In this document: positions 1,645-60,459 of the stretch, piece after piece
How the letters are laid out: each line of letters starts with the position of its first letter
Position numbering within the stretch: position 1 is the stretch's first letter
Source: a phage
Sequence record: OZ335960.1
Strand: one strand, 5' to 3'
Length of the DNA: 64,000 nt
Position numbers and translations under genes: made by a program
The notes under the pieces: model-generated
What the model saw: the letters and a program-made list of their open reading frames with translations, nothing else
The model's database searches: none
Told to the model about the DNA's origin: nothing

Positions 1645-2969
1645 TTGATTTCCTCTAAATCTTTGGTGTATTCTGTAACTACATCAGTAGTTTTCCAATA
1701 TTCGTTTTCTTCTTTCTTAGCTTTAGCTTCTTCGGCAAGTTTCTTTGCTTCGTCGGAAGTCATATGAAAAATATTCATTCCGACTAGTTTATCAACATAA
1801 GAAGAATACATATCAATTTTAGAAAGTTCTTCGGTCAGTTCTTTGCGAGTTTTACCTTGCACAACAATTTCACCTGAAATTACTTTCTTAATGAAATGTG
1901 CCTTGGCAAAAGCTAAACGAAATGCTGATTCAGTTTCTTTGATTTTGTTATCAATTCGTTTTTGGACATAAGTTTTACGAACTTCAACGAAGTCTTTGAT
2001 TAAATCAACTACATTATCGTAAACTTGCAGCTTTCCTTTCTCATTAATAACGGTGATATTCTGGGAACGACGCTCAATCAACCCAAAGTCTTTCATGATT
2101 TTTGCGTGGCGTTCTTCTTCGTTATCGCTCAAAGAATATTCTTTGCGGAATTTAACTTTGAAGCCAAAACCATGCTCACCACAAGCATCATCCCACGTAA
2201 TGAAGCCTTTATCTTCAAGCGGGTCTAAGATTTTACTCACATAAGTTTCACGATCATACTTATACGGAATCTCAGTGATATGCATTTGAGTTCGTGAAGT
2301 AAACTTGTATGTTCCACGAATTTCATATTGACCGTCAATTTCAACGACTTCACCACGAAATTCTGGGAATTCTACCTTCGGTTTAGTTACTTTCTTTCCT
2401 TGAAGAGCTTGCAATACAGCTTTCTTGACAGAAGAAACACTATGAGGAAGAATGTAAGTTGCATAACCAGTTGCAATACCGGAAACACCATTAAGAAGAA
2501 CAGTAGGAATAATAGGCAAATAGAAAGCAGGCGGAATGTGTTCTTTATCTTGATGTACCGGAGCATATTCAGTATCTTTATATACACTATAGAAATTTTT
2601 ACTTACACGAGCAAAAATATAACGACTTGCCGCTGCTTTTTGAACGGTACGAGAACCAAAGTTTCCTTGACCATCTAACAAAGGAAAGTTATTATTCCAA
2701 GTATTAGCCATCAAAGCACCTGCGTCTTGCGCAGAGTTTTCACCATGATGATATCCAAGGTCTGCTACACCACCTGCAATAGAAGCGAGTTTGTGAAACT
2801 TATCTTTATTTCCTCGTGCCAAATCAAGAGCTCGAGCAATAACAAATCGTTGAACTGGCTTAAATCCATCAATCATATTTGGGATAGCACGATTTTCAAC
2901 CGTGTACATAGCATAAGCCAATGCTTCATTATCAATGATACTTTTTAAATCGCGATTATTCAGTTGCAT
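1641..2969 (-). CDS. 52: DNA topoisomerase II medium subunit gp52
   Basis: 442 aa as in T4 gp52; GyrA-like N-terminal motif AIPNMIDGFKPVQR. Confidence 0.9.
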   Translation of the reverse strand: MQLNNRDLKSIIDNEALAYAMYTVENRAIPNMIDGFKPVQRFVIARALDLARGNKDKFHKLASIAGGVADLGYHHGENSAQDAGALMANTWNNNFPLLDGQGNFGSRTVQKAAASRYIFARVSKNFYSVYKDTEYAPVHQDKEHIPPAFYLPIIPTVLLNGVSGIATGYATYILPHSVSSVKKAVLQALQGKKVTKPKVEFPEFRGEVVEIDGQYEIRGTYKFTSRTQMHITEIPYKYDRETYVSKILDPLEDKGFITWDDACGEHGFGFKVKFRKEYSLSDNEEERHAKIMKDFGLIERRSQNITVINEKGKLQVYDNVVDLIKDFVEVRKTYVQKRIDNKIKETESAFRLAFAKAHFIKKVISGEIVVQGKTRKELTEELSKIDMYSSYVDKLVGMNIFHMTSDEAKKLAEEAKAKKEENEYWKTTDVVTEYTKDLEEIK

Positions 2970-3106
2970 AAATTTACCATACTAGTGAATGTAGTGCCAT
3001 AATAACATCAGAAATGAAAAGCACGACTTGAATTAATCCGAACATTACTCCATAATATAGTGCTACCAATAAAGTAGCAAGGGCTAATGAATAGCCCAAG
3101 ATTTTC

Positions 3107-3265
3107 TTAATCATTAGTAGATAACAACACAAATGTTAAATATGCACACATACCCTGGGCTAAAGCTTGTGAAAACACACTGCTAGCATCAATACAGATA
3201 GTTAAAACACATGCTACTATCCAACAAACAAATGAAATAACTCCTAATAATTTTGCGATATTCAT
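3107..3265 (-). CDS. small membrane protein, Ac-like paralog (52 aa)
   Basis: Internal ATG of track ORF 3107..3295 with SD GAGGAG; hydrophobic; shares ...SVF.QA.AQG motif with adjacent ac. Confidence 0.5.
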   Translation of the reverse strand: MNIAKLLGVISFVCWIVACVLTICIDASSVFSQALAQGMCAYLTFVLLSTND

Positions 3266-3275
3266 AATATTCTCC

Positions 3276-3431
3276 TCAACTATTTTTAGAACCAATGTAC
3301 GCGAATAATGATAAAATCGCTAATACGCCCTGAGCTGATGCTTGCAAAAATACTGAAGTTTCTCCAGTTATTACTGTTCCGATGCATAAAAAGAACCAAC
3401 AGAAAAAGGCTATACCGTGAACAAATTTCAT
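3276..3431 (-). CDS. ac: small membrane protein Ac (acridine sensitivity), 51 aa
   Basis: Hand-translated MKFVHGIAFFCWFFLCIGTVITGETSVFLQASAQG...; 51 aa and position directly downstream of stp as in T4. Confidence 0.5.
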   Translation of the reverse strand: MKFVHGIAFFCWFFLCIGTVITGETSVFLQASAQGVLAILSLFAYIGSKNS

Positions 3432-3438
3432 ATTTTCC

Positions 3439-3519
3439 TCACTGGCGTCCGAAGACGCCTTTGGTTTTAAGATTATTACGATAGAACTGCATCACGTGTT
3501 CGTTATGGAAATTACTCAT
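3439..3519 (-). CDS. stp: Stp peptide (26 aa), activator of host anticodon nuclease PrrC
   Basis: Hand translation [26 protein letters not shown] matches the T4 Stp peptide as I recall it; ATG overlaps ndd stop. Confidence 0.75.
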
Positions 3520-3974
3520 TAGTATGCCTGCAAAACAAATTTAAAGTTATCAGCCAACATACGGTTCATTTCTTCAAGCGTTTGATATTCAGAATGATGA
3601 TTACGAGTAAACGCTAAAGCTAACTGGCCTTTTCCAAATCCTGTCGTCAGAGGTTTCATCTTAGAAGCAGGTAGATAAAATACTGTATATGGAACATTAT
3701 TATTTGCAATAGTACGCGCAAGCTGAGACCGACGCTGACGAATATGACTTAGAACTGCACTGAATCCTTGCTTAGAACGCTGATTACCTACATAAAATCG
3801 TGCAGATACACACGGACTATCAAATGGACCACCAAATTTACTCACTAAAAAGTAAAATCCAGGTGTAGATAAAATGTCTTTATGTGGAGTTCCAAAAACC
3901 CATTCACCGCCCTTGATTGTACCAATAACAGTAGCACCTGCATTATTCAAATCAGTAACAGTCATGTATTTCAT
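3519..3974 (-). CDS. ndd: Ndd nucleoid disruption protein
   Basis: 151 aa as T4 Ndd; position between denB and stp. Confidence 0.75.
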
Positions 3975-9722: not shown

Positions 9723-11540
9723 CTACTGGCTCATCCATTCTTTACGAAGGTCAGCATTATCTCCCATGAGCATTTCAAAAAGCTCTTTCCAGTTCTCAGG
9801 AAGTTTAACAACATCATATACCGGGTTTTGAATCATCTCACGATATTCAGATTTTTCCAAAGAGCCAAGTCCCTTAATATAACGGATGCTATGTTTAGGT
9901 AGAGCATCTTTGGCACTCTCATATTCAGCGACTGTATAAAACCATTCTTGTTTTTTACCGACCTGGGCGATGATTACAGGAGTTTTGACGAAACGAATTC
10001 TTCCTTGTTCAAACAGTTCTGGCCAATTACTAAAAAATCCGAGCAGAGAAGGATAAATGCTTCCTAGACCATCGTGGTCAGCATCGGTCATAATAGCAAT
10101 ATTATGATAATTCAAGTTTTCAGCTTTTTCACCAAGAACTAATCCAGTGATTGCGCAAATATCAAATAGTTCTTTGTTTTTAAGCATATCAGCATATGAC
10201 ATACCCCAGCTATTAAGAACTTTACCACGCAATGGATAACCACCATGAAGTTCTTTATCACGAACATCAATAAGATATCCGATAGCAGAATCACCCTCAG
10301 TCAAGAAAAGAGTAGTATCAGCATCTTTACCGCAAAGATTCGCTTTAATGTGTTTATGAACCTTAGCTTTAGAAGCCTTTTTAGCTGCTTTAGTTTCTGC
10401 TGCCTTTTCTGCCGCCAATTTACGAGCCAAGGCAGCTTCAATAATTGGCATTAAAATTGCTTCATTATTTAAAATAGCACGTGAAATCTTTTTAGCATCA
10501 AGCTGAATATGACTACGAATTTCACCAAATGGAGAAGTCAAACGCTCTTTAGTCTGAGAATCAAATCGCATGTTTTTCATATCACGAACAAACATAACGA
10601 TAGTCAAACATTCTTTAACCCGTGCTTTAGTTACATCAATTTTAAACTTGCGTTTGATTTGTGGAATAAGGTCTTCACAAATATCATCCATAACGCAGTC
10701 AATGTGATGGCCACCATTCTTAGTATGAATGTTATTGACGTATGTTAATTGACGAAAACCATCCGGTGAACGACCGACTGCAATAGAACAGTTTTCCTGT
10801 TCTTGAACGATAGCATGCTCATCATATTGGCGTGCATATTTCTTAAAATTACCCTGAACCTTTTTACCATTAAAGGTAAATTGAATATCAGGATAAACTA
10901 CTGCAAGTGTCTGGAGACGATCCAGTGTAATGTCAAGATAAACTTGAGATAGCTCATTAGTTTCAAATGACATAAAATCAGGAATGAAAGTAACACGAGT
11001 TCCTTTCCATTTTCCAGGAATAGTTTCCCATGATTTATTTTCCATGCCATTTGAACAACGAACTACAATATTATTTTGACCGTCGCCAGTTTCACCGACA
11101 AACATCACAGAAAAAATGTTAGTTAAACTAGAACCAACACCGTTCATACCGCCAGTGACGCGTTCTTTATCATCACCAAAGTTACCACCTGCTTTTGGAA
11201 TAGTCCATGCAGCAACAGGACCAGGAATTTCTTCACCAGTAGGTGTTTTAACCATCGCTTGCGGAATACCACGACCGTTATCTTCAACTGTTACTTGATT
11301 GTTTTTGATAGTAACATTAATTTTATTCGCGAATTTAAACTTAGTACGAATACCTTCATCTACTGAGTTATCGATAATTTCATCAATAAGCTTAACAAGA
11401 CCAGGTACATACTGAACACTTTCCCATTTACCAAACAGAAAGCGCTCATGCATTTCATTAGCAGAAGAACCAATGTACATGCCGCTACGCTTTTTGATAT
11501 GTTCAATATCGCTCAGAATTTTAATTTCATTCTTAATCAT
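9723..11540 (-). CDS. 39: DNA topoisomerase II large subunit, fused 39/60 form (605 aa)
   Basis: GyrB-like ATPase N-terminus; C-terminus ...NIAIMTDADHDGLGSIYPSL contiguous, no split or bypass; ATG at 11540. Confidence 0.9.
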   Translation of the reverse strand: MIKNEIKILSDIEHIKKRSGMYIGSSANEMHERFLFGKWESVQYVPGLVKLIDEIIDNSVDEGIRTKFKFANKINVTIKNNQVTVEDNGRGIPQAMVKTPTGEEIPGPVAAWTIPKAGGNFGDDKERVTGGMNGVGSSLTNIFSVMFVGETGDGQNNIVVRCSNGMENKSWETIPGKWKGTRVTFIPDFMSFETNELSQVYLDITLDRLQTLAVVYPDIQFTFNGKKVQGNFKKYARQYDEHAIVQEQENCSIAVGRSPDGFRQLTYVNNIHTKNGGHHIDCVMDDICEDLIPQIKRKFKIDVTKARVKECLTIVMFVRDMKNMRFDSQTKERLTSPFGEIRSHIQLDAKKISRAILNNEAILMPIIEAALARKLAAEKAAETKAAKKASKAKVHKHIKANLCGKDADTTLFLTEGDSAIGYLIDVRDKELHGGYPLRGKVLNSWGMSYADMLKNKELFDICAITGLVLGEKAENLNYHNIAIMTDADHDGLGSIYPSLLGFFSNWPELFEQGRIRFVKTPVIIAQVGKKQEWFYTVAEYESAKDALPKHSIRYIKGLGSLEKSEYREMIQNPVYDVVKLPENWKELFEMLMGDNADLRKEWMSQ

Positions 11541-28655: not shown

Positions 28656-29504
28656 TTAATCAACTGCTATTGGATGAATAGCATTAAACTTATGAAACGC
28701 TTCTGATTTTTCTTTGCGCGAAACACACATGCGAAGAACCTTTAATGGCTCGTCTTCTTCACCTAATGATTTTCGTTTTTCAATATTCGATGTTTTCCAA
28801 CGAGCTTGCTCTGGAAACTCTCTATTGATTTGCTCAAGCGCTCTATTATGTTTAGAATTACTACGAATTGAACTACATCCGCCTGGGGCTTGTGCTTTTC
28901 CAGATACAACCAGATATTTGAACAAGGCCAAATGCGGATAACCTTGATTAATTAAATTGAGAAATGCATACATATCTTCGCATAAATCAATTTTTCCATA
29001 CCCAATTTGTTCTGTTGTAAGTTTTCCAAGGTCATACCAGGTATTCGTGAATCCATATGAATTTTCACGATAATTACCCCAAGATGAAGTAATTTTAAAA
29101 ATAGGCAGACGAGCATGACCATGATAATACCCGCAATCCATGGCATCTTCAACGTATTGAATCAATTCATAGAACTGTTCACGAGTTAACTGATTAATTT
29201 TATCTACGCAGCGACGATCATCTTTCTTTCGCATTGAACTCATACGAATAGTAGTATCATCATCAATCATCCAAATTCGTTGACCTGCATACATATCAGT
29301 AATTGCTTTACGAGTACCAGCAATTCCGTTAACATCATCAGGAATAATTATAATTTTAGCTCTAGACCCGTAAGCGTCATAATAAGCTTTTTCTTCGTGT
29401 TCACGTACTACAATATGAGGTTCATAATCAGTCGGAAACATATCAAGGGCAGAAACTGCCCCTACGCGCTGATAGCTTGGAATTACGAATTGAATCATTT
29501 CCAC
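28656..29504 (-). CDS. DNA glucosyltransferase, probably beta-glucosyl-HMC-alpha-glucosyltransferase
   Basis: 282 aa in b-gt position but shorter than the ~351 aa I recall for T4 b-gt; size fits T2/T6 ba-gt. Confidence 0.6.
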   Translation of the reverse strand: MEMIQFVIPSYQRVGAVSALDMFPTDYEPHIVVREHEEKAYYDAYGSRAKIIIIPDDVNGIAGTRKAITDMYAGQRIWMIDDDTTIRMSSMRKKDDRRCVDKINQLTREQFYELIQYVEDAMDCGYYHGHARLPIFKITSSWGNYRENSYGFTNTWYDLGKLTTEQIGYGKIDLCEDMYAFLNLINQGYPHLALFKYLVVSGKAQAPGGCSSIRSNSKHNRALEQINREFPEQARWKTSNIEKRKSLGEEDEPLKVLRMCVSRKEKSEAFHKFNAIHPIAVD

Positions 29505-39481: not shown

Positions 39482-39668
39482 TATCTAAAATGTTGAAGTT
39501 AAAAGATACGGCCCAATCAGTGCAGACCGTAACCTTTTTAATACAATTATCTTCAACCTCTAGCGGTTCAAACCAATATTCAATAATTTCTTTATGCCCA
39601 ATATCATCTTTTACTTCGCATTCAAAATGCTGACTCATCATAACATTTTTAAATTCATCAAAAGTCAT
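39405..39668 (-). CDS. hypothetical protein, 87 aa
   Basis: ATG overlaps gene 47 stop. Confidence 0.4.
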   Translation of the reverse strand: MTFDEFKNVMMSQHFECEVKDDIGHKEIIEYWFEPLEVEDNCIKKVTVCTDWAVSFNFNILDNDTPKSLQDMAVSCIKDAYCEVFDI

Positions 39669-40684
39669 TGTGTTGCCTCTACATATAACTGATTTGCATA
39701 TTGAATAAGTGCTTCGCGATCAGAATCAGTGATGTCTGGAATTGCATTAATGTATTCTTCCATCAACGTCTGAAGAGATTGAACTTCAACTTCTTCACTA
39801 TCATCTGACTCGACAGAGTTATCAATCTTTGACACAACTCGTAATGAATGCACAACTTTTTCTAGTTCAGATTCGAACTTCGTTAGATTTTTGTCTACTT
39901 CAGTTACTATAACACGTACTGATAGATTTGTAAAATCTTTATAGTCAATTTTTCCCTTAAATGGATACTGAATTCGACGATGCCAGGTAGTGTTGTTTGG
40001 AATAAATTCCATTCGTTCTGTTTCTGTATCAAACATCCAGAACCCGCGAGGGTCATTCTCGTCACCTGCAGTTAGTGTCCATGGTGTCCCAATATATCTG
40101 ACATTAGCAGCCTCAGAGATAGTATGGAAGTGACCAGACCACACCTCTTTATAAGTCTTAAGGAAATCAGGTTCAAGACCGTGAGATTTCATTCCTTTAT
40201 AAAAATAAAATCCATTCAGTTCCCAGTGACCAACACAAAAAGAAGCAGATGAAGTTTTGATGTGTTCAAGAATTTCACCAGTATTTTCTTCGCACATCCA
40301 AGGAATTAAATCAATCAAACATCCGTCAAAATCTACTGTAGCAGGCTTATCATATACTTTAACATTAGGATATTTAGCCAAAAGCTCAGTAGAAGCATTT
40401 GGATGCATTACATTTTTGTAGTGGAGATCGTGATTTCCTACAATAGTATGTAATGTGATTCCAGCGTCATCAAGCATTTGAACTATTTCACGGGCAAACT
40501 CCATTGTTTTATGCGTGATCGCTTTTCGCACATCAAAAATATCACCATATTGAATCCATACCGTAATTCCATTTTTCTTAGAATATTCTATCGCTTGCTT
40601 AATTCCATCAATTTGAATACCGCGAATCCACTCATCATCAGCTTTAACGCCTAAATGCCAATCACCCAAGTTTAGTATTTTCAT
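39665..40684 (-). CDS. 47: recombination nuclease subunit gp47 (Mre11/SbcD-like)
   Basis: 339 aa as T4 gp47; phosphoesterase motifs GDWHLG, GNHD. Confidence 0.9.
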   Translation of the reverse strand: MKILNLGDWHLGVKADDEWIRGIQIDGIKQAIEYSKKNGITVWIQYGDIFDVRKAITHKTMEFAREIVQMLDDAGITLHTIVGNHDLHYKNVMHPNASTELLAKYPNVKVYDKPATVDFDGCLIDLIPWMCEENTGEILEHIKTSSASFCVGHWELNGFYFYKGMKSHGLEPDFLKTYKEVWSGHFHTISEAANVRYIGTPWTLTAGDENDPRGFWMFDTETERMEFIPNNTTWHRRIQYPFKGKIDYKDFTNLSVRVIVTEVDKNLTKFESELEKVVHSLRVVSKIDNSVESDDSEEVEVQSLQTLMEEYINAIPDITDSDREALIQYANQLYVEATQ

Positions 40685-41285
40685 GATGTCTTTTCCATCC
40701 TAATTTAGCTGCTTTTGAAACCAGTTCTTTAATTTTTCCTTTTGCCCATTCAGGACCAGGAGGTTCATGACATAACATTTGCTTAACTCCGTTATTATAC
40801 CATTTTTTACCTTTATTATGTGATGAAGCTTTAAATTTATTTGACCTTCCTTTTACATAACCTTCTGGAATATAAGGTAAAAAGGCAGATTTTCCTGTTA
40901 ATGGATCATGTGAATGTATATTTCCTTTACAATTATGAGAACCATATAATGGATGATTTTGTCCTTTATTATCTCTTCCAAATGAACCTTTTGGAGCAGC
41001 ATATGACATATTAAAGAATAATGGATTTTTAACTGCATCATGCAATCGTTGATAATATAACTCGCATTTAATAGCTTCTTCACGCGTATCAAATTCAGCT
41101 AAAATGCATGAATCAAATAAGTGAGGATTATCTGAAAGCTCTTTATTATAAATTTTCTTATACTTTTTAGATAAAACTGAACCATGATATCCAGCTAAAT
41201 GCCTATCTAAAGACGTAGATCCAATATAAAAAGGAGGAAGTTTATCTCCATTATATATTGTTAAATAAGTTATATATTTTTTCAT
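40662..41285 (-). CDS. GIY-YIG family endonuclease-like protein (Seg-like), 207 aa
   Basis: N-terminal ITYLTIYNGDKLPPFYIGSTS..R...E...N pattern; basic Gly/His-rich C-terminal region. Confidence 0.55.
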   Translation of the reverse strand: MKKYITYLTIYNGDKLPPFYIGSTSLDRHLAGYHGSVLSKKYKKIYNKELSDNPHLFDSCILAEFDTREEAIKCELYYQRLHDAVKNPLFFNMSYAAPKGSFGRDNKGQNHPLYGSHNCKGNIHSHDPLTGKSAFLPYIPEGYVKGRSNKFKASSHNKGKKWYNNGVKQMLCHEPPGPEWAKGKIKELVSKAAKLGWKRHHENTKLG

Positions 41286-41444
41286 ATATCAAGAACCGTC
41301 ATTGAAATGCAAAATAAAATTATTGAAATAAATCCATCTGGAGTGCTAAAGAACCCAATCCAACATGCTCTAGTGAATAGATAAAATGCGAGAAAAAGTA
41401 TCACATATCCAAGAAATATCATTATATCAAACTCCGTATAAAGC

Positions 41445-41461: not shown

Positions 41462-42664
41462 TTATTTTGTAATAATGTCAAATTGTTCTTTAAAGCAGAA
41501 GCTTGAATCTTGATGCTGATACAAAAATTCATAAGCTTTTTCGCGTTCACGGTCATAAAGAGTTCGGTCAGATGACAGTTCTTTAATACGCTCAAATGTT
41601 GATTCCATGTCATTTTCATCAAACCAAACGATACCGCTATCATGAGAAATTAACGGAGTATTATCAACACGGAATTTTAAATTTTCGCCAGTAGATTTCC
41701 AAAATACTGGAATTGTTCCACATGCACCAAGCTCGAGATGAGTATATTCTAAAGAACGTTGTAGATATTTTTTATCCAACTTACTCAGCTGATAACCAAA
41801 TCCGGATTTACTCATGCGTTCAAGCATTTCGCTATTTACATAACGGTCGAGAATTTGCGTTGGCAAATTAGGAGCAATTTTAATTTGGTCTACTTGATGA
41901 AGACGATAATACTCGTATGGAATTCCTTTTTCTTTAATAGGAATGAACGCTGGAGAACGTTCCAGACCTTCCATAATAGTACTTAGTCCAGCAGGTTTAA
42001 GATGTTTTTCGTGAAAATCAAACATCTGATAAAAACCTTTCCATGTAGTCGTACGACCAATCCAACGGTTGACATTCATGTTAATTTCAGAAACATCTTT
42101 CCAGTAGGTTGATCGAACCTTCGCAATATCCATAGGAGGCTGAAAGTTGTATACAGTCGGTGCTTCTTCAATATCATCAAACAGTGAAACAGTTTCTGGA
42201 TACCATTCTTTCATCAAAACTTTATTAAAATCACCATTATCAGAATGACTAAAAATAACATCAGCTCGACGAACAGTTTCTTCTAACCCCAAATTTCGGC
42301 GCAAAGAAAGAGAAGAATGGTCATGTTGATAAACTACAACACGAACCGAAGGTTTAATGTTATCAATAATTTTTTTATAGTTATTAATAGTGTCTTCTTC
42401 GACTGAAGTAGCAGGAACTGAATTGATAATTAGAATATCACAATCATTTACCAGCTTAAGTGTTTTATCGTATTCTTTTGCCAATAAAACCGGAATTGAA
42501 AATGATTTATAATCATGCGCGCAATTACGGGTAAATGATTTATCTTTAGCATAAACCAAAGTTACTTCATGACCATTTTTAATAAACCAATCACGTTGCT
42601 CGAGAGAAAATTTAGTTACGCCGCAACCTTCAAGACCTCTAGCCATAAAAATACATACTTTCAT
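41462..42664 (-). CDS. a-gt: DNA alpha-glucosyltransferase
   Basis: 400 aa as T4 a-gt; position between 47 and 55. Confidence 0.85.
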   Translation of the reverse strand: MKVCIFMARGLEGCGVTKFSLEQRDWFIKNGHEVTLVYAKDKSFTRNCAHDYKSFSIPVLLAKEYDKTLKLVNDCDILIINSVPATSVEEDTINNYKKIIDNIKPSVRVVVYQHDHSSLSLRRNLGLEETVRRADVIFSHSDNGDFNKVLMKEWYPETVSLFDDIEEAPTVYNFQPPMDIAKVRSTYWKDVSEINMNVNRWIGRTTTWKGFYQMFDFHEKHLKPAGLSTIMEGLERSPAFIPIKEKGIPYEYYRLHQVDQIKIAPNLPTQILDRYVNSEMLERMSKSGFGYQLSKLDKKYLQRSLEYTHLELGACGTIPVFWKSTGENLKFRVDNTPLISHDSGIVWFDENDMESTFERIKELSSDRTLYDREREKAYEFLYQHQDSSFCFKEQFDIITK

Positions 42665-42713
42665 TTAATATCCTCATTGTTTTGGTTTATTTTACCAAAA
42701 ATTTATAAAGCAA

Positions 42714-42733
42714 TATAGGAGCCGAAGCTCCTA
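42714..42733 (-). terminator. UUCG-loop hairpin
   Basis: GGAGCUUCGGCUCC; weak U-run. Confidence 0.4.
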
Positions 42734-42907
42734 TCCGCATAATACACCATACAGAGGCTCATTAGAGCTTCTAAATTTTATACGCTTATATGTTATAGTT
42801 CCTTCTGCTTTAGCTTTATCATGAGACTCTTTAAAGCGTCTCATCATTTCTACTTTAGAGGAACGAATTTTATTATAATCTATTTCAGAAGTCTGGATGT
42901 TCATCTT

Positions 42908-58463: not shown

Positions 58464-59477
58464 TCATTTATAATAACTTCGGTGGTTTTCAAGATAAACC
58501 CTCTCAAGGAAGTCATCCCAGAAACCCATGTCTACTTTTTGCTGCATACCGTTCTTAGAAGCTTCAATGGATGCTGCTTCTACCTGATCGACCACATCTT
58601 CCAAAAACTCTTGAACAGTTTTAAATGGATGTTTACCCAACTTCACGTCGAGAATAAATGGAGCGTCTTGAAGTGGATAAACTAAGTCACCTGTTTTGTA
58701 AATTTCCAATAGTTGGAGTCCACCACGACAAGCATGACTTAGAGCTTTCCAATCAATGCCCTCATTCGCTTCAGCCTTACGAGCGCGTTCGCCGTATTCA
58801 GCATCAAGTTTATTCAAAGATTGCTTAAGCTCGATAAGAGAAAGCGTTGTTTGATATTTACGACCCAACACAGTGTAGAACGTTTGTGGGCCTGTTTTCT
58901 CATGATTATGGAATACCCATTCACAGAATTCGTTCTCTGGAAGACGATGCTTAATATCTTCAACTTTAGTGCGACGCTGCTTAATGGAACCGTCTTCTTG
59001 ATAATCAACCCATTGCTCAGGGATTTGATTAACTACTTTCAATACATCACGTAATGCGGCCAAACGAGAACCCTTGACGCCGTATTTAGAAGCTTGCTTG
59101 CGAACATATCCTAAATAGGATTTCATGTTAGTCGTATAAAAACGAGAACGATTGTCTTGAATAAATTTCCATACATCAGGCAAATCAGATTTAACCACTA
59201 ACTCAGGTGGAGTGTGGAGCATATCCAATGCTACAGTTTCACCATCTGCTGCTAATTTAAAGAAATACTTAAGACTGTATAGTTCATGGTCAATATCATC
59301 TTTAGTGTTTTTAGATGATGTGTTGTTAGTGTTTTTACTCATATGCTCTTTAACATTTCCGATAAGAATGTCGCGAGCAGGAGGAACAAAGATTTCTTTA
59401 AAATCTACATCAGATTCTGGAGTAGAAGTTCCATAAAGATGACTACCAAAATAGCTTTTCATTACTGTTTTCATCAT
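58464..59477 (-). CDS. Pol-beta-superfamily nucleotidyltransferase-like protein, 337 aa
   Basis: N-terminus YFGSHLYGTSTPESDVDF fits GS-x-G-x-SDxD NTase signature; helical C-terminal region. Confidence 0.6.
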   Translation of the reverse strand: MMKTVMKSYFGSHLYGTSTPESDVDFKEIFVPPARDILIGNVKEHMSKNTNNTSSKNTKDDIDHELYSLKYFFKLAADGETVALDMLHTPPELVVKSDLPDVWKFIQDNRSRFYTTNMKSYLGYVRKQASKYGVKGSRLAALRDVLKVVNQIPEQWVDYQEDGSIKQRRTKVEDIKHRLPENEFCEWVFHNHEKTGPQTFYTVLGRKYQTTLSLIELKQSLNKLDAEYGERARKAEANEGIDWKALSHACRGGLQLLEIYKTGDLVYPLQDAPFILDVKLGKHPFKTVQEFLEDVVDQVEAASIEASKNGMQQKVDMGFWDDFLERVYLENHRSYYK

Positions 59478-59935
59478 TCAGCCTTATATTCAATAACAGG
59501 ACATACTTTAGCTTTACGCGCTTTTAAAAATTCGACGATAATAGATTTCTTAGGTTGAATAGGAGGTAAACCTTTATACGCCCTATCAATATTTTCTACA
59601 TGTAAAGCATAATCCTTTTTCCATTTATAATCTTTATATTTTTCATGCAGTTGTGCAGGAATAACAAATGAACCAATAATAAGTAAAACAAGCAAAATGG
59701 CAAGTATAAATGCTGATGGAATAAGAGTCCATAGACTGCTAAAAATAATCCAACGCTGTAAACTTTCTGCGCAGATAATAGTTAGACCTGCGAGTATAGT
59801 ACATCCGAAAAAAGAAACGAAAAATGTAGGGATAACAATAGACCAAAAGTATGCACATAATGTCTTAGGTCGTTTCCATTCGTCGTTAAACATTTTGAAT
59901 AATTTATAATGCCAAGAGTTTTCATTAATAATCAT
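59474..59935 (-). CDS. multi-pass membrane protein, 153 aa
   Basis: Two long hydrophobic blocks; stop overlaps NTase ATG (ATGA). Confidence 0.5.
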   Translation of the reverse strand: MIINENSWHYKLFKMFNDEWKRPKTLCAYFWSIVIPTFFVSFFGCTILAGLTIICAESLQRWIIFSSLWTLIPSAFILAILLVLLIIGSFVIPAQLHEKYKDYKWKKDYALHVENIDRAYKGLPPIQPKKSIIVEFLKARKAKVCPVIEYKAE

Positions 59936-59937
59936 AA

Positions 59938-60459
59938 TTATCCTTTCATTGAAGGTGTAACAGTTGTTAAATACTTAATCATAGCTTCAGCTTCTGATTT
60001 TGATAATGAAATTTCTCCATTGTTTTGACGAATAGAAATAAAATCCGGATGACGGTCACCACCAGCTTTTAAAATACACATATAAGTATCAGTTTCATCT
60101 TCAATATCTGAAATGATTGAAGCAGTTCCGCATGAATGCGGTTTTTGATAAATCAATGCAGCTTTTCTTCCGCCGTTTGACTGTTCATAAACTTTTAACA
60201 CATCAAACAAATCGCTTCTTTTATCAATAGCTAAGATGTTGTTTTCATCTTCAATGTTAAATCCTTCGGATACTTCATAAAGTGTCACCCATAAATCGCC
60301 AATATCAATGACAGCATTCACCTTTCCATGATTTTCAAGAGCATTACAAATTTTCTTAATTTCATCATAACTCATTTTAATAATATCATCTCCTTGAATA
60401 AAGAAGATGTCATTTTTAAATTCAACGCGAATTAAACCACTTCCACTTGAAATAAACAT
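59938..60459 (-). CDS. hypothetical protein, 173 aa (paralog A)
   Basis: C-terminal SKSEAEAMIKYLTTVTPSM shared with next ORF. Confidence 0.5.
   Translation of the reverse strand: MFISSGSGLIRVEFKNDIFFIQGDDIIKMSYDEIKKICNALENHGKVNAVIDIGDLWVTLYEVSEGFNIEDENNILAIDKRSDLFDVLKVYEQSNGGRKAALIYQKPHSCGTASIISDIEDETDTYMCILKAGGDRHPDFISIRQNNGEISLSKSEAEAMIKYLTTVTPSMKG

Follow-up and report, generated by a model that had tools for sequence, protein, structure and literature searches.

The 64,000-nt stretch of phage DNA considered here, from sequence record OZ335960.1 and called the window below, contains an intact open reading frame (ORF) of 207 codons, started by ATG and lodged on the minus strand between genes 47.1 and 47. 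This ORF is likely a free-standing Seg-type GIY-YIG homing endonuclease gene: a 601-bp selfish cassette between 47.1 and 47 that would spread by intronless homing, with its target at or near the 47.1/47 junction. A preliminary description drawn from the sequence had pointed to this ORF, and both its extent and the motifs quoted from it are correct in the ORF list and the translation, where KYITYLTIYNGDKLPPFYIGSTS is followed by REEAIKCE (with E75) and FFNMS (with N92).

A Conserved Gene under Selection

Several results set the ORF apart from a reading frame open by chance. A database search returned 145 homologues of the 207-amino-acid (aa) product, the best at E 1e-139. The protein is matched by PHROG 10820 at E 4.8e-94 and by phrog_314, described as 'homing endonuclease', at 2.6e-18. 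Intact copies from five different phages were compared codon by codon, and the pairs that diverge most have 16-19 synonymous vs. 4-5 nonsynonymous differences, for example, 18 vs. 5. This large excess of synonymous over nonsynonymous changes indicates purifying selection on the endonuclease protein.

The GIY-YIG Catalytic Domain

The N-terminal ~100 residues are predicted to form a GIY-YIG nuclease domain. Such an arrangement had been proposed from the translation alone; it is borne out by Pfam, by the conserved residues and by the predicted fold. The profile search suggested at that time gave PF01541 (GIY-YIG) as the sole Pfam match of the protein (E 2.8e-4, 21.6 bits vs. a curated gathering cut-off of 22.6), with residues 4-84 aligned to profile positions 2-74 of 78. 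The same profile also matches 13 of the 49 aligned family members (E < 0.01), and the NCBIfam search of the 207-aa protein gave no relevant match.

An AlphaFold2 model was built on the alignment of the 49 relatives, with a mean predicted local distance difference test (pLDDT) score of 85.8 overall and of ~96 for residues 1-100. The predicted elements succeed each other as strand 4-11, strand 19-25, helix 26-30, helix 43-52, strand 57-65 and helix 68-81. This beta-beta-alpha-alpha-beta-alpha order can be superposed on that of solved GIY-YIG domains. A Foldseek search against the PDB placed the I-TevI catalytic domain on top (1mk0/1ln0, probability 0.99), followed by Slx1 and UvrC.

The ITY motif (Y7) is located on the first predicted strand and FYIG (Y20, G22) on the second. 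These three residues are each present in 48 of the 49 relatives, the remaining row being gapped at that place, while E75 is kept in all 49 and N92 in 48. The five positions align with the Tyr of GIY, the Tyr-Gly of YIG, the catalytic Glu (E75 of I-TevI) and the Asn (N90), and likewise with the T4 Seg proteins, which agrees with the Glu and Asn positions named in the preliminary description. The T4 Seg proteins are mostly reported as active site-specific endonucleases, the activity of SegD being listed as not determined (PMC2988022, Table 1). Position 28, on the short helix 26-30, is an Arg in the window; it is a Lys or Arg in 43 of the 49 relatives and an Asn in the other six. Where R28 aligns, the T4 Seg proteins have an Asp, and I-TevI has a nine-residue insertion.

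The C-Terminal Region and the Relationship with Seg Proteins

By profile alignment, the whole protein appears colinear with the Seg proteins and closest to T4 SegE. Against a database of 11 proteins, for which the E-values were computed and which included the T4 homing endonucleases and DenA, the family profile aligned with the full length of SegE (45 bits, E 6.7e-15); lower scores followed for SegC (3e-08), SegD (1e-07), SegG (3e-07), SegA (2e-06) and SegB (1e-04); MobB (0.15) and DenA (0.27) were not significant. A direct BLASTP comparison with SegE gave 28% identity over 193 aa (E 2e-5).

Residues 101-207 start with a vestigial NUMOD3 opening (NHPLYGSHN), continue in the model as two beta-hairpin modules and end in a terminal basic helix (186-202). 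Each hairpin module is followed by a P-x-G-aromatic-x-K-G motif (IPEGYVKGR; KKWYNNG...PGPEWAKGK). The tail had been called basic, rich in Gly and His and Seg-like: this composition is visible in the translation, and the C-terminus of SegE is colinear with it. The region may bind DNA. A check with NUMOD profiles had also been proposed. PF07460 (NUMOD3) does not match the 207-aa protein at E up to 10, only the opening NHPLYGSH being recognizable, but NUMOD3 repeats occur in 27 of the 49 relatives. In many relatives, the C-terminal region is swapped for NUMOD3 repeats or for another tail, which is the modular pattern expected of GIY-YIG homing enzymes.

SegE is a free-standing GIY-YIG enzyme encoded between inh and uvsW, and it cleaves the uvsW gene of RB30 (PMC2988022, Table 1, and its ref. 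36). The two proteins resemble each other in length (205 aa for SegE), in their two-part architecture, in the N-terminal Seg-type signature YIG-x(8-10)-G-Y-x-G-S and in the W-x-NNG...P-x-G-aromatic-x-KGR modules of the C-terminal half. Moreover, both genes lie directly 5' of a conserved DNA-metabolism gene. They differ in sequence (28% identity), in locus and, presumably, in target. A middle promoter of its own precedes SegE within a non-coding spacer (PMC2988022), whereas the 207-aa gene has no spacer and overlaps both of its neighbors. The activity of SegE has been demonstrated, while that of the 207-aa protein is predicted from its sequence.

With I-TevI, the GIY-YIG endonuclease of the td intron (1MK0/1LN0), the protein shares its best structural match for the catalytic domain and the Tyr, Tyr-Gly, Glu75 and Asn residues, and the NUMOD3 repeats of its relatives are also present in the I-TevI DNA-binding domain. 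On the contrary, the 207-aa gene is not intron-encoded, no zinc finger or helix-turn-helix was detected in its product, the helix that bears R27 in I-TevI is shorter (a nine-residue gap), and the sequence identity is about 16-21%.

The T4 cassettes segC, mobE, segF and segG offer another comparison. They, too, are present or absent among T-even phages and inserted between conserved genes, and their start/stop codon overlaps suggest coupled or limited translation (PMC2988022). The gene-47 cassette differs in being absent from T4. In the sample examined, its lineage (at least 58% identity) also keeps to one site across several genera, a fidelity that the sources consulted do not document for the T4 seg genes.

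A Precise Insertion with a Patchy Distribution

The insertion is precise, its distribution is patchy, and some copies have decayed. In T4, both the annotation and the sequence show 47.1 directly abutting 47, with no gene between them. A comparison of the interval from 47 to a-gt with T4 had been suggested, and the absence of the gene there indicates that the ORF is not the ordinary 47.1 or a-gt.x. The segment from the 3' end of a-gt to the 5' end of 47 was aligned for eight carriers (the window, AndreasVesalius, Killian, phiC600P9, PhiZZ23, KNP5, ESh36 and ERS-1) and seven empty-site genomes (T4 and six IMG/VR contigs). IMG/VR supplied only empty sites and two distant carriers, none of them a close Tequatrovirus carrier, so carriers were taken from GenBank. 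The aligned segment measures 1477 nt in carriers vs. 876 nt in empty genomes, a clean difference of 601 bp between flanks that are 90-99% identical.

The same seven nucleotides, ATGAAAA, stand at both ends of the insert, because the endonuclease gene and gene 47 both begin with Met-Lys. The exact boundary of the insertion is consequently ambiguous, and the repeat offers microhomology for a precise loss.

The insert DNA was found in 69 GenBank phage records, compared with ~504 records that have the 47.1/47 junction (at least 80% coverage). It is, thus, present in roughly 13% of the T4-level relatives (Tequatrovirus records). Free-standing homing endonucleases had been said to vary between T-even phages, and this gene does: T4 is empty, and carriers and empty sites coexist within Tequatrovirus. 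KNP1 (KX452694) and KNP5 share a 124-nt deletion (ORF nt 179-302) that removes residues 60-101, including E75 and N92, and shifts the frame. In the record of the latter, a Shigella phage (NC_055713, locus 1499-1971), the decayed remnant carries no annotation. The ESh36 copy has a 1-nt insertion and the ERS-1 copy four single-base indels, all frameshifts; both records are flagged UNVERIFIED, so errors of sequencing could account for these frameshifts. A gene that is present, absent or decayed among members of a single genus shows the classic life cycle of a homing endonuclease gene.

Silent Changes at the Start of Gene 47

The 876 flanking columns were compared between seven carriers (ERS-1 excluded) and the seven empty genomes. 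Among 109 variable columns, only four differ consistently between carriers and empty sites. They lie at 40676, 40675, 40670 and 40667, i.e., at nt 9, 10, 15 and 18 of gene 47 (codons 3-6): carriers read ATG AAA ATA CTA AAC TTG and empty genomes ATG AAA ATT TTA AAT TTA. All four changes are silent for gp47. The remaining polymorphism of the flanks is mosaic, and PhiZZ23 turns to a T4-type haplotype within ~120 nt.

In GenBank, the variant codons occur in 73 of 74 carrier records, ERS-1 being the exception. They also occur in about eight empty-site records (SHFML-26, BCPEco_001, BCPSen_003, Ec_YwIITB1, PBM-1, UGKSEcP1, EPIMAM01); the empty junction of SHFML-26 with the four substitutions lies at 100381-100468 of NC_031011. 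These empty sites could be due to a precise loss via the ATGAAAA repeat or to selection for resistance. RB14 is intermediate, with three mismatches to the chimeric junction query.

A constraint from the overlapping endonuclease frame was considered for these changes and rejected, as the T4-type codons leave that frame open to the same TGA. With them, the endonuclease tail reads NFKFR instead of NTKLG, and this tail is found in ERS-1. Two explanations remain: the four bases belong to the end of the inserted DNA and stay with it by tight linkage, or they mark a cleavage-resistant allele of a target spanning the 47.1/47 junction. Codons 3-6 of gene 47 would then be a candidate target or immunity site.

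Orthologues at Gene 47 in Other Genera

At least five other groups of Straboviridae have orthologues in this position. Directly 5' of gene 47, in many cases with an overlap, there are relatives of 49-70% identity in Mosigvirus AV109, Jiaodavirus KP185, the Aeromonas Biquartavirus L9-6, a QL01-like contig (L028) and vB_EcoM_005; the overlap measures 17 nt in KP185 and 23 nt in L9-6. In Erwinia FBB1, IME08 and HMGUkp2, the tblastn match touches the annotated gene, which suggests adjacency to the gp47 gene. Several metagenomic relatives (58-76% identity) end in '...NEN...' or '...HEN...'. Since xATGAAAAT in an overlapping frame encodes such ends, these relatives, too, probably abut a gene starting with ATGAAAAT. 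The start of gp47, MKIL(N/H)xGD(W/L/F)H, is conserved in all 28 loci recovered and holds the Asp-x-His of phosphoesterase motif I.

In the sample examined, which spans several genera, no member of the lineage with at least 58% identity was seen outside the 5' end of gene 47. A distant paralogue (45% identity) is found in Tegunavirus TG1 (Yersinia phage vB_YenM_TG1, NC_028820, locus L042, 1798-2481), directly 5' of the topoisomerase II large-subunit gene, with an 8-nt overlap. This position indicates that the family can change sites. The geometry of an overlap with the start of a conserved DNA-metabolism gene, thus, recurs at another locus in TG1.

Homing endonucleases favor conserved, functionally critical sequences (PMC2988022), and the start of gene 47 is, by this preference, a reasonable candidate target.

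Gene Neighborhood and Expression Context

The features of the locus are listed in Table 1. The preliminary description had given a 23-nt overlap with gene 47, which is right in length but involves the start (5' end) of gene 47 and not its 3' end. Similarly, the ORF does border gene 47, as described, but a-gt is not its immediate neighbor, 47.1 lying between them. The stop codon of 47.1 overlaps the endonuclease ATG by 4 nt (ATGA). At the other end, the endonuclease TGA is contained in the Gly7-Asp8 codons of gene 47 (GGT GAT), within the N-terminal GDWH motif of gp47.

Table 1. Features of the gene 47 to a-gt region (positions in the window)
Feature	Position	Strand	Remarks or evidence
Putative free-standing homing endonuclease gene, Seg-like GIY-YIG, including TGA stop	40662..41285	-	ORF list, PHROG, homologues, codon changes
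Predicted GIY-YIG catalytic domain, residues 1-100	40986..41285	-	Conserved Y7, Y20, G22, R28, Y33, G35, E75, N92
Presumed DNA-binding region, residues 101-207	40665..40985	-	Colinear with the T4 SegE C-terminus (FWVNNG...IPDGFIKGR)
601-bp insertion relative to T4 and other empty-site phages	40685..41285	-	From the endonuclease ATG up to the base preceding the ATG of gene 47
ATGAAAA 7-nt direct repeat, upstream copy (endonuclease start)	41279..41285	-	Read from the sequence
ATGAAAA 7-nt direct repeat, downstream copy (gene 47 start)	40678..40684	-	Read from the sequence
Overlap of endonuclease 3' end with gene 47 codons 1-8, 23 nt	40662..40684	-	
Gene 47, Mre11/SbcD-like recombination nuclease subunit, to which the element is attached	39665..40684	-	99% identity to gp47 of T4-like contigs; T4 annotation
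Gene 47.1, 46 aa, predicted membrane protein	41282..41422	-	100% identity to T4 gp47.1; T4 annotation
T4 middle-promoter-like site (GCTT...TATAAT), upstream of the endonuclease gene	41421..41444	-	Annotations in relatives
GC-rich UUCG hairpin overlapping the a-gt stop codon	41445..41464	-	Consensus scan (scored for the + strand only); SA20RB terminator annotation; also in T4
a-gt	41462..42664		Beyond 47.1 as seen from the endonuclease ORF

The UUCG hairpin is perfectly conserved, and the middle-promoter-like site follows it directly. The homologous site is annotated as a T4-type middle promoter in SA20RB and as a promoter in Lutter, and T4 has the identical sequence. As the -10 box overlaps the ATG of 47.1, transcripts from this site would lack that start codon. 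Near the ORF, a motif scan found no late promoter (TATAAATA) and a consensus scan no convincing sigma-70 promoter of its own. Because the site is common to the window and T4, the cassette appears to ride on a middle transcription unit that already served genes 47 and 46. It would be transcribed with 47 from this promoter and would sit where the translation start region of gene 47 lies in T4. The endonuclease-specific promoters of T4 are mostly middle promoters, and overlaps with upstream ORFs are common there and may limit translation (PMC2988022). The middle-promoter context of the gene-47 cassette agrees with this published pattern.

Other Endonuclease Loci in the Window

T4 has fifteen endonuclease genes, and the gene-47 cassette is not among them. 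The whole window (1-64000) was compared with T4 regions 162236-168903 and 1-60354. A tblastn search of the 64 kb with the T4 seg, mob and intron endonucleases found none of them, and the 207-aa ORF is the only endonuclease-like gene noted in the window with those queries. The slots of segF, segA, mobA, mobC and mobD, as well as that of the nrdD intron (I-TevII), are empty or replaced.

On the other side of a-gt, the interval 42665-42730, between a-gt and the a-gt.2 homologue (42731-42904), has no mobB, the HNH gene (795 bp) present in T4. As mobB is absent and the 207-aa ORF present, the endonuclease cassettes that flank a-gt are not the same in the phage of the window and in T4. T4 has segA and the beta-glucosyltransferase gene (~1.9 kb) between uvsX and gene 42; in their place, the window has a single unrelated ORF of 282 aa (28656-29504, minus strand) that may be a second glucosyltransferase of the T2/T6 type. 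At 10058-10123 of the window, compared with 2793-3911 of T4, ~1.1 kb of T4 sequence is absent, comprising 60.1, mobA and the distal part of gene 60, which includes the 50-nt translational bypass. The topoisomerase large subunit may, accordingly, be encoded by an unsplit gene, as in phages without the mobA insertion. Finally, the mobD slot (59474-60459, minus strand) is taken by two unrelated ORFs of 153 aa, which looks hydrophobic, and 173 aa; neither matches any T4 endonuclease.

Proposed Mechanism and Alternative Explanations

Intronless homing has been established for SegA, SegB, SegC, SegE, SegF and SegG (PMC2988022). For the gene-47 cassette, it would proceed as follows. During the co-infection of a cell by a carrier and an empty-site phage, the enzyme would cleave the empty allele with a staggered double-strand break, located at the 47.1/47 junction or close to it. 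The recombination-dependent repair of the phage would then copy the cassette, along with some flanking sequence, from the carrier. The expected outcome is homing of the cassette and local marker exclusion around 47 and a-gt, with the loss of the alleles of the competitor. Carriers would be protected, as the insert splits the site and the four silent changes alter codons 3-6 of gene 47. The 3' end of the endonuclease gene, through the overlap, would give gene 47 its new upstream context. The signs of site-specific cleavage and preferential inheritance are indirect: decayed copies, empty sites with insert-type codons and the four fixed silent differences beside the insert.

Several observations weigh against this interpretation. 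At the level of the protein, the Pfam score is 1 bit short of the gathering cut-off, and the catalytic R27 of I-TevI has no secure equivalent. A PDB sequence search with the 207-aa protein alone returned no GIY-YIG chain and only spurious ribosomal-protein matches; the family profile found a single PDB match (E 0.12), to the NUMOD3 portion of the DNA-binding domain of I-TevI; and hhalign aligned the family with full-length I-TevI only over the NUMOD3-like stretch (probability 27%). As these alignments miss the catalytic domain, the link to GIY-YIG catalytic domains rests on Pfam, the motifs and the fold. With regard to homing, the divergence of the orthologues (49-70% aa identity) is similar to that of gp47 (about 70%), which fits long vertical residence as well as repeated homing. 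The four silent changes are linked and lie within 18 nt of the insert, so linkage alone could explain their association with it. Furthermore, the characterized Seg enzymes often cut hundreds of bp away from their own gene (PMC2988022); the cut site may, therefore, lie elsewhere in 47, 47.1 or a-gt. The literature search also returned no biochemical or genetic account of the protein and no paper naming it.

Some of these points are shared by a different explanation, in which the gene is a domesticated or decaying relic that has kept the GIY-YIG fold and lost homing. It would persist because its deletion would disturb the translation of gene 47, or because it benefits the phage, for example, by regulating through DNA binding or by acting against competitors. 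The element does form the upstream context of the essential gene 47, with its 23-nt overlap, and orthologues at the same spot in several genera, diverged to the same degree as gp47, fit long vertical inheritance. The uncertain equivalent of the canonical Arg points in the same direction, and embedded regulatory signals are known to favor the retention of T4 endonuclease genes (PMC2988022). A relic is, nevertheless, unlikely: the gene is patchy within a single genus, being present in about 13% of the records, and the empty site is precise. The purifying selection and the conserved E75, N92 and Tyr residues speak for a working nuclease, while broken copies such as that of KNP5 show that its loss is tolerated by the phage. 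Very improbable is a nuclease without a homing function that degrades host or foreign DNA as an accessory gene, in the manner of T4 EndoII (DenA). The latter is also a GIY-YIG enzyme, but the family profile places the 207-aa protein far nearer to the Seg proteins (E 6.7e-15) than to DenA (0.27), its modular Seg/NUMOD-type tail is typical of site-specific homing enzymes, and the geometry of the insertion is that of a homing cassette.

The databases propose yet another identity. In GenBank, the ORF is labeled 'hypothetical protein', 'putative homing endonuclease' (in the BASEL phages) or 'HNH endonuclease'. The last name is given to orthologues in many RefSeq records (NC_054911, NC_054919, NC_054924, NC_054933, NC_055723 and others) and also stands in the description of phrog_10820, from which it has apparently spread. 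It is a mislabel. No HNH-family Pfam profile matches the protein at E up to 10; the fold, the motifs and the structural neighbors are those of GIY-YIG enzymes; and the nearest T4 proteins are the Seg proteins, the HNH enzyme MobB reaching only E 0.15. Other records call relatives of the protein 'GIY-YIG homing endonuclease'. The profile and fold results refute an HNH identity, to which we attach hardly any weight.

The interpretation as a Seg-type homing cassette can be carried one step further. The lineage could be a specific 'gene 47 homing endonuclease' that tracks the first codons of gene 47, beside the GDWH metal-binding motif, across much of Straboviridae and recognizes that very sequence, the four silent changes being the immunity allele. 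We put this forward as a tentative extension, possible but with the balance tilted against it. If true, the element would target the very gene whose product (gp46/47) is believed to carry out resection at the homing break. The handful of empty-site phages that have insert-type codons would then have survived the homing cycle through resistance.

Significance

In a full-text literature search, and in term searches of the Edgell 2010 review and of the GIY-YIG phylogenomics paper, no description or name was found for an endonuclease gene between 47 and 47.1/a-gt. The gene is an uncharacterized addition to the well-known Seg class, not a new kind of system. Its added interest is modest; it comes from the attachment to the 5' end of gene 47 in several genera and from the compact candidate target or immunity site. 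The empty and occupied alleles are well defined, and the short candidate target consists of the 47.1/47 junction and the four silent polymorphisms. The partners for experiments are at hand: carriers in the BASEL collection, and T4 or T2 without the cassette.

When T-even phages co-infect a cell, free-standing homing endonucleases influence which of their alleles persist. This bears on phage genetics and on how phages recombine in therapeutic cocktails, and such enzymes are also a source of programmable nuclease domains.

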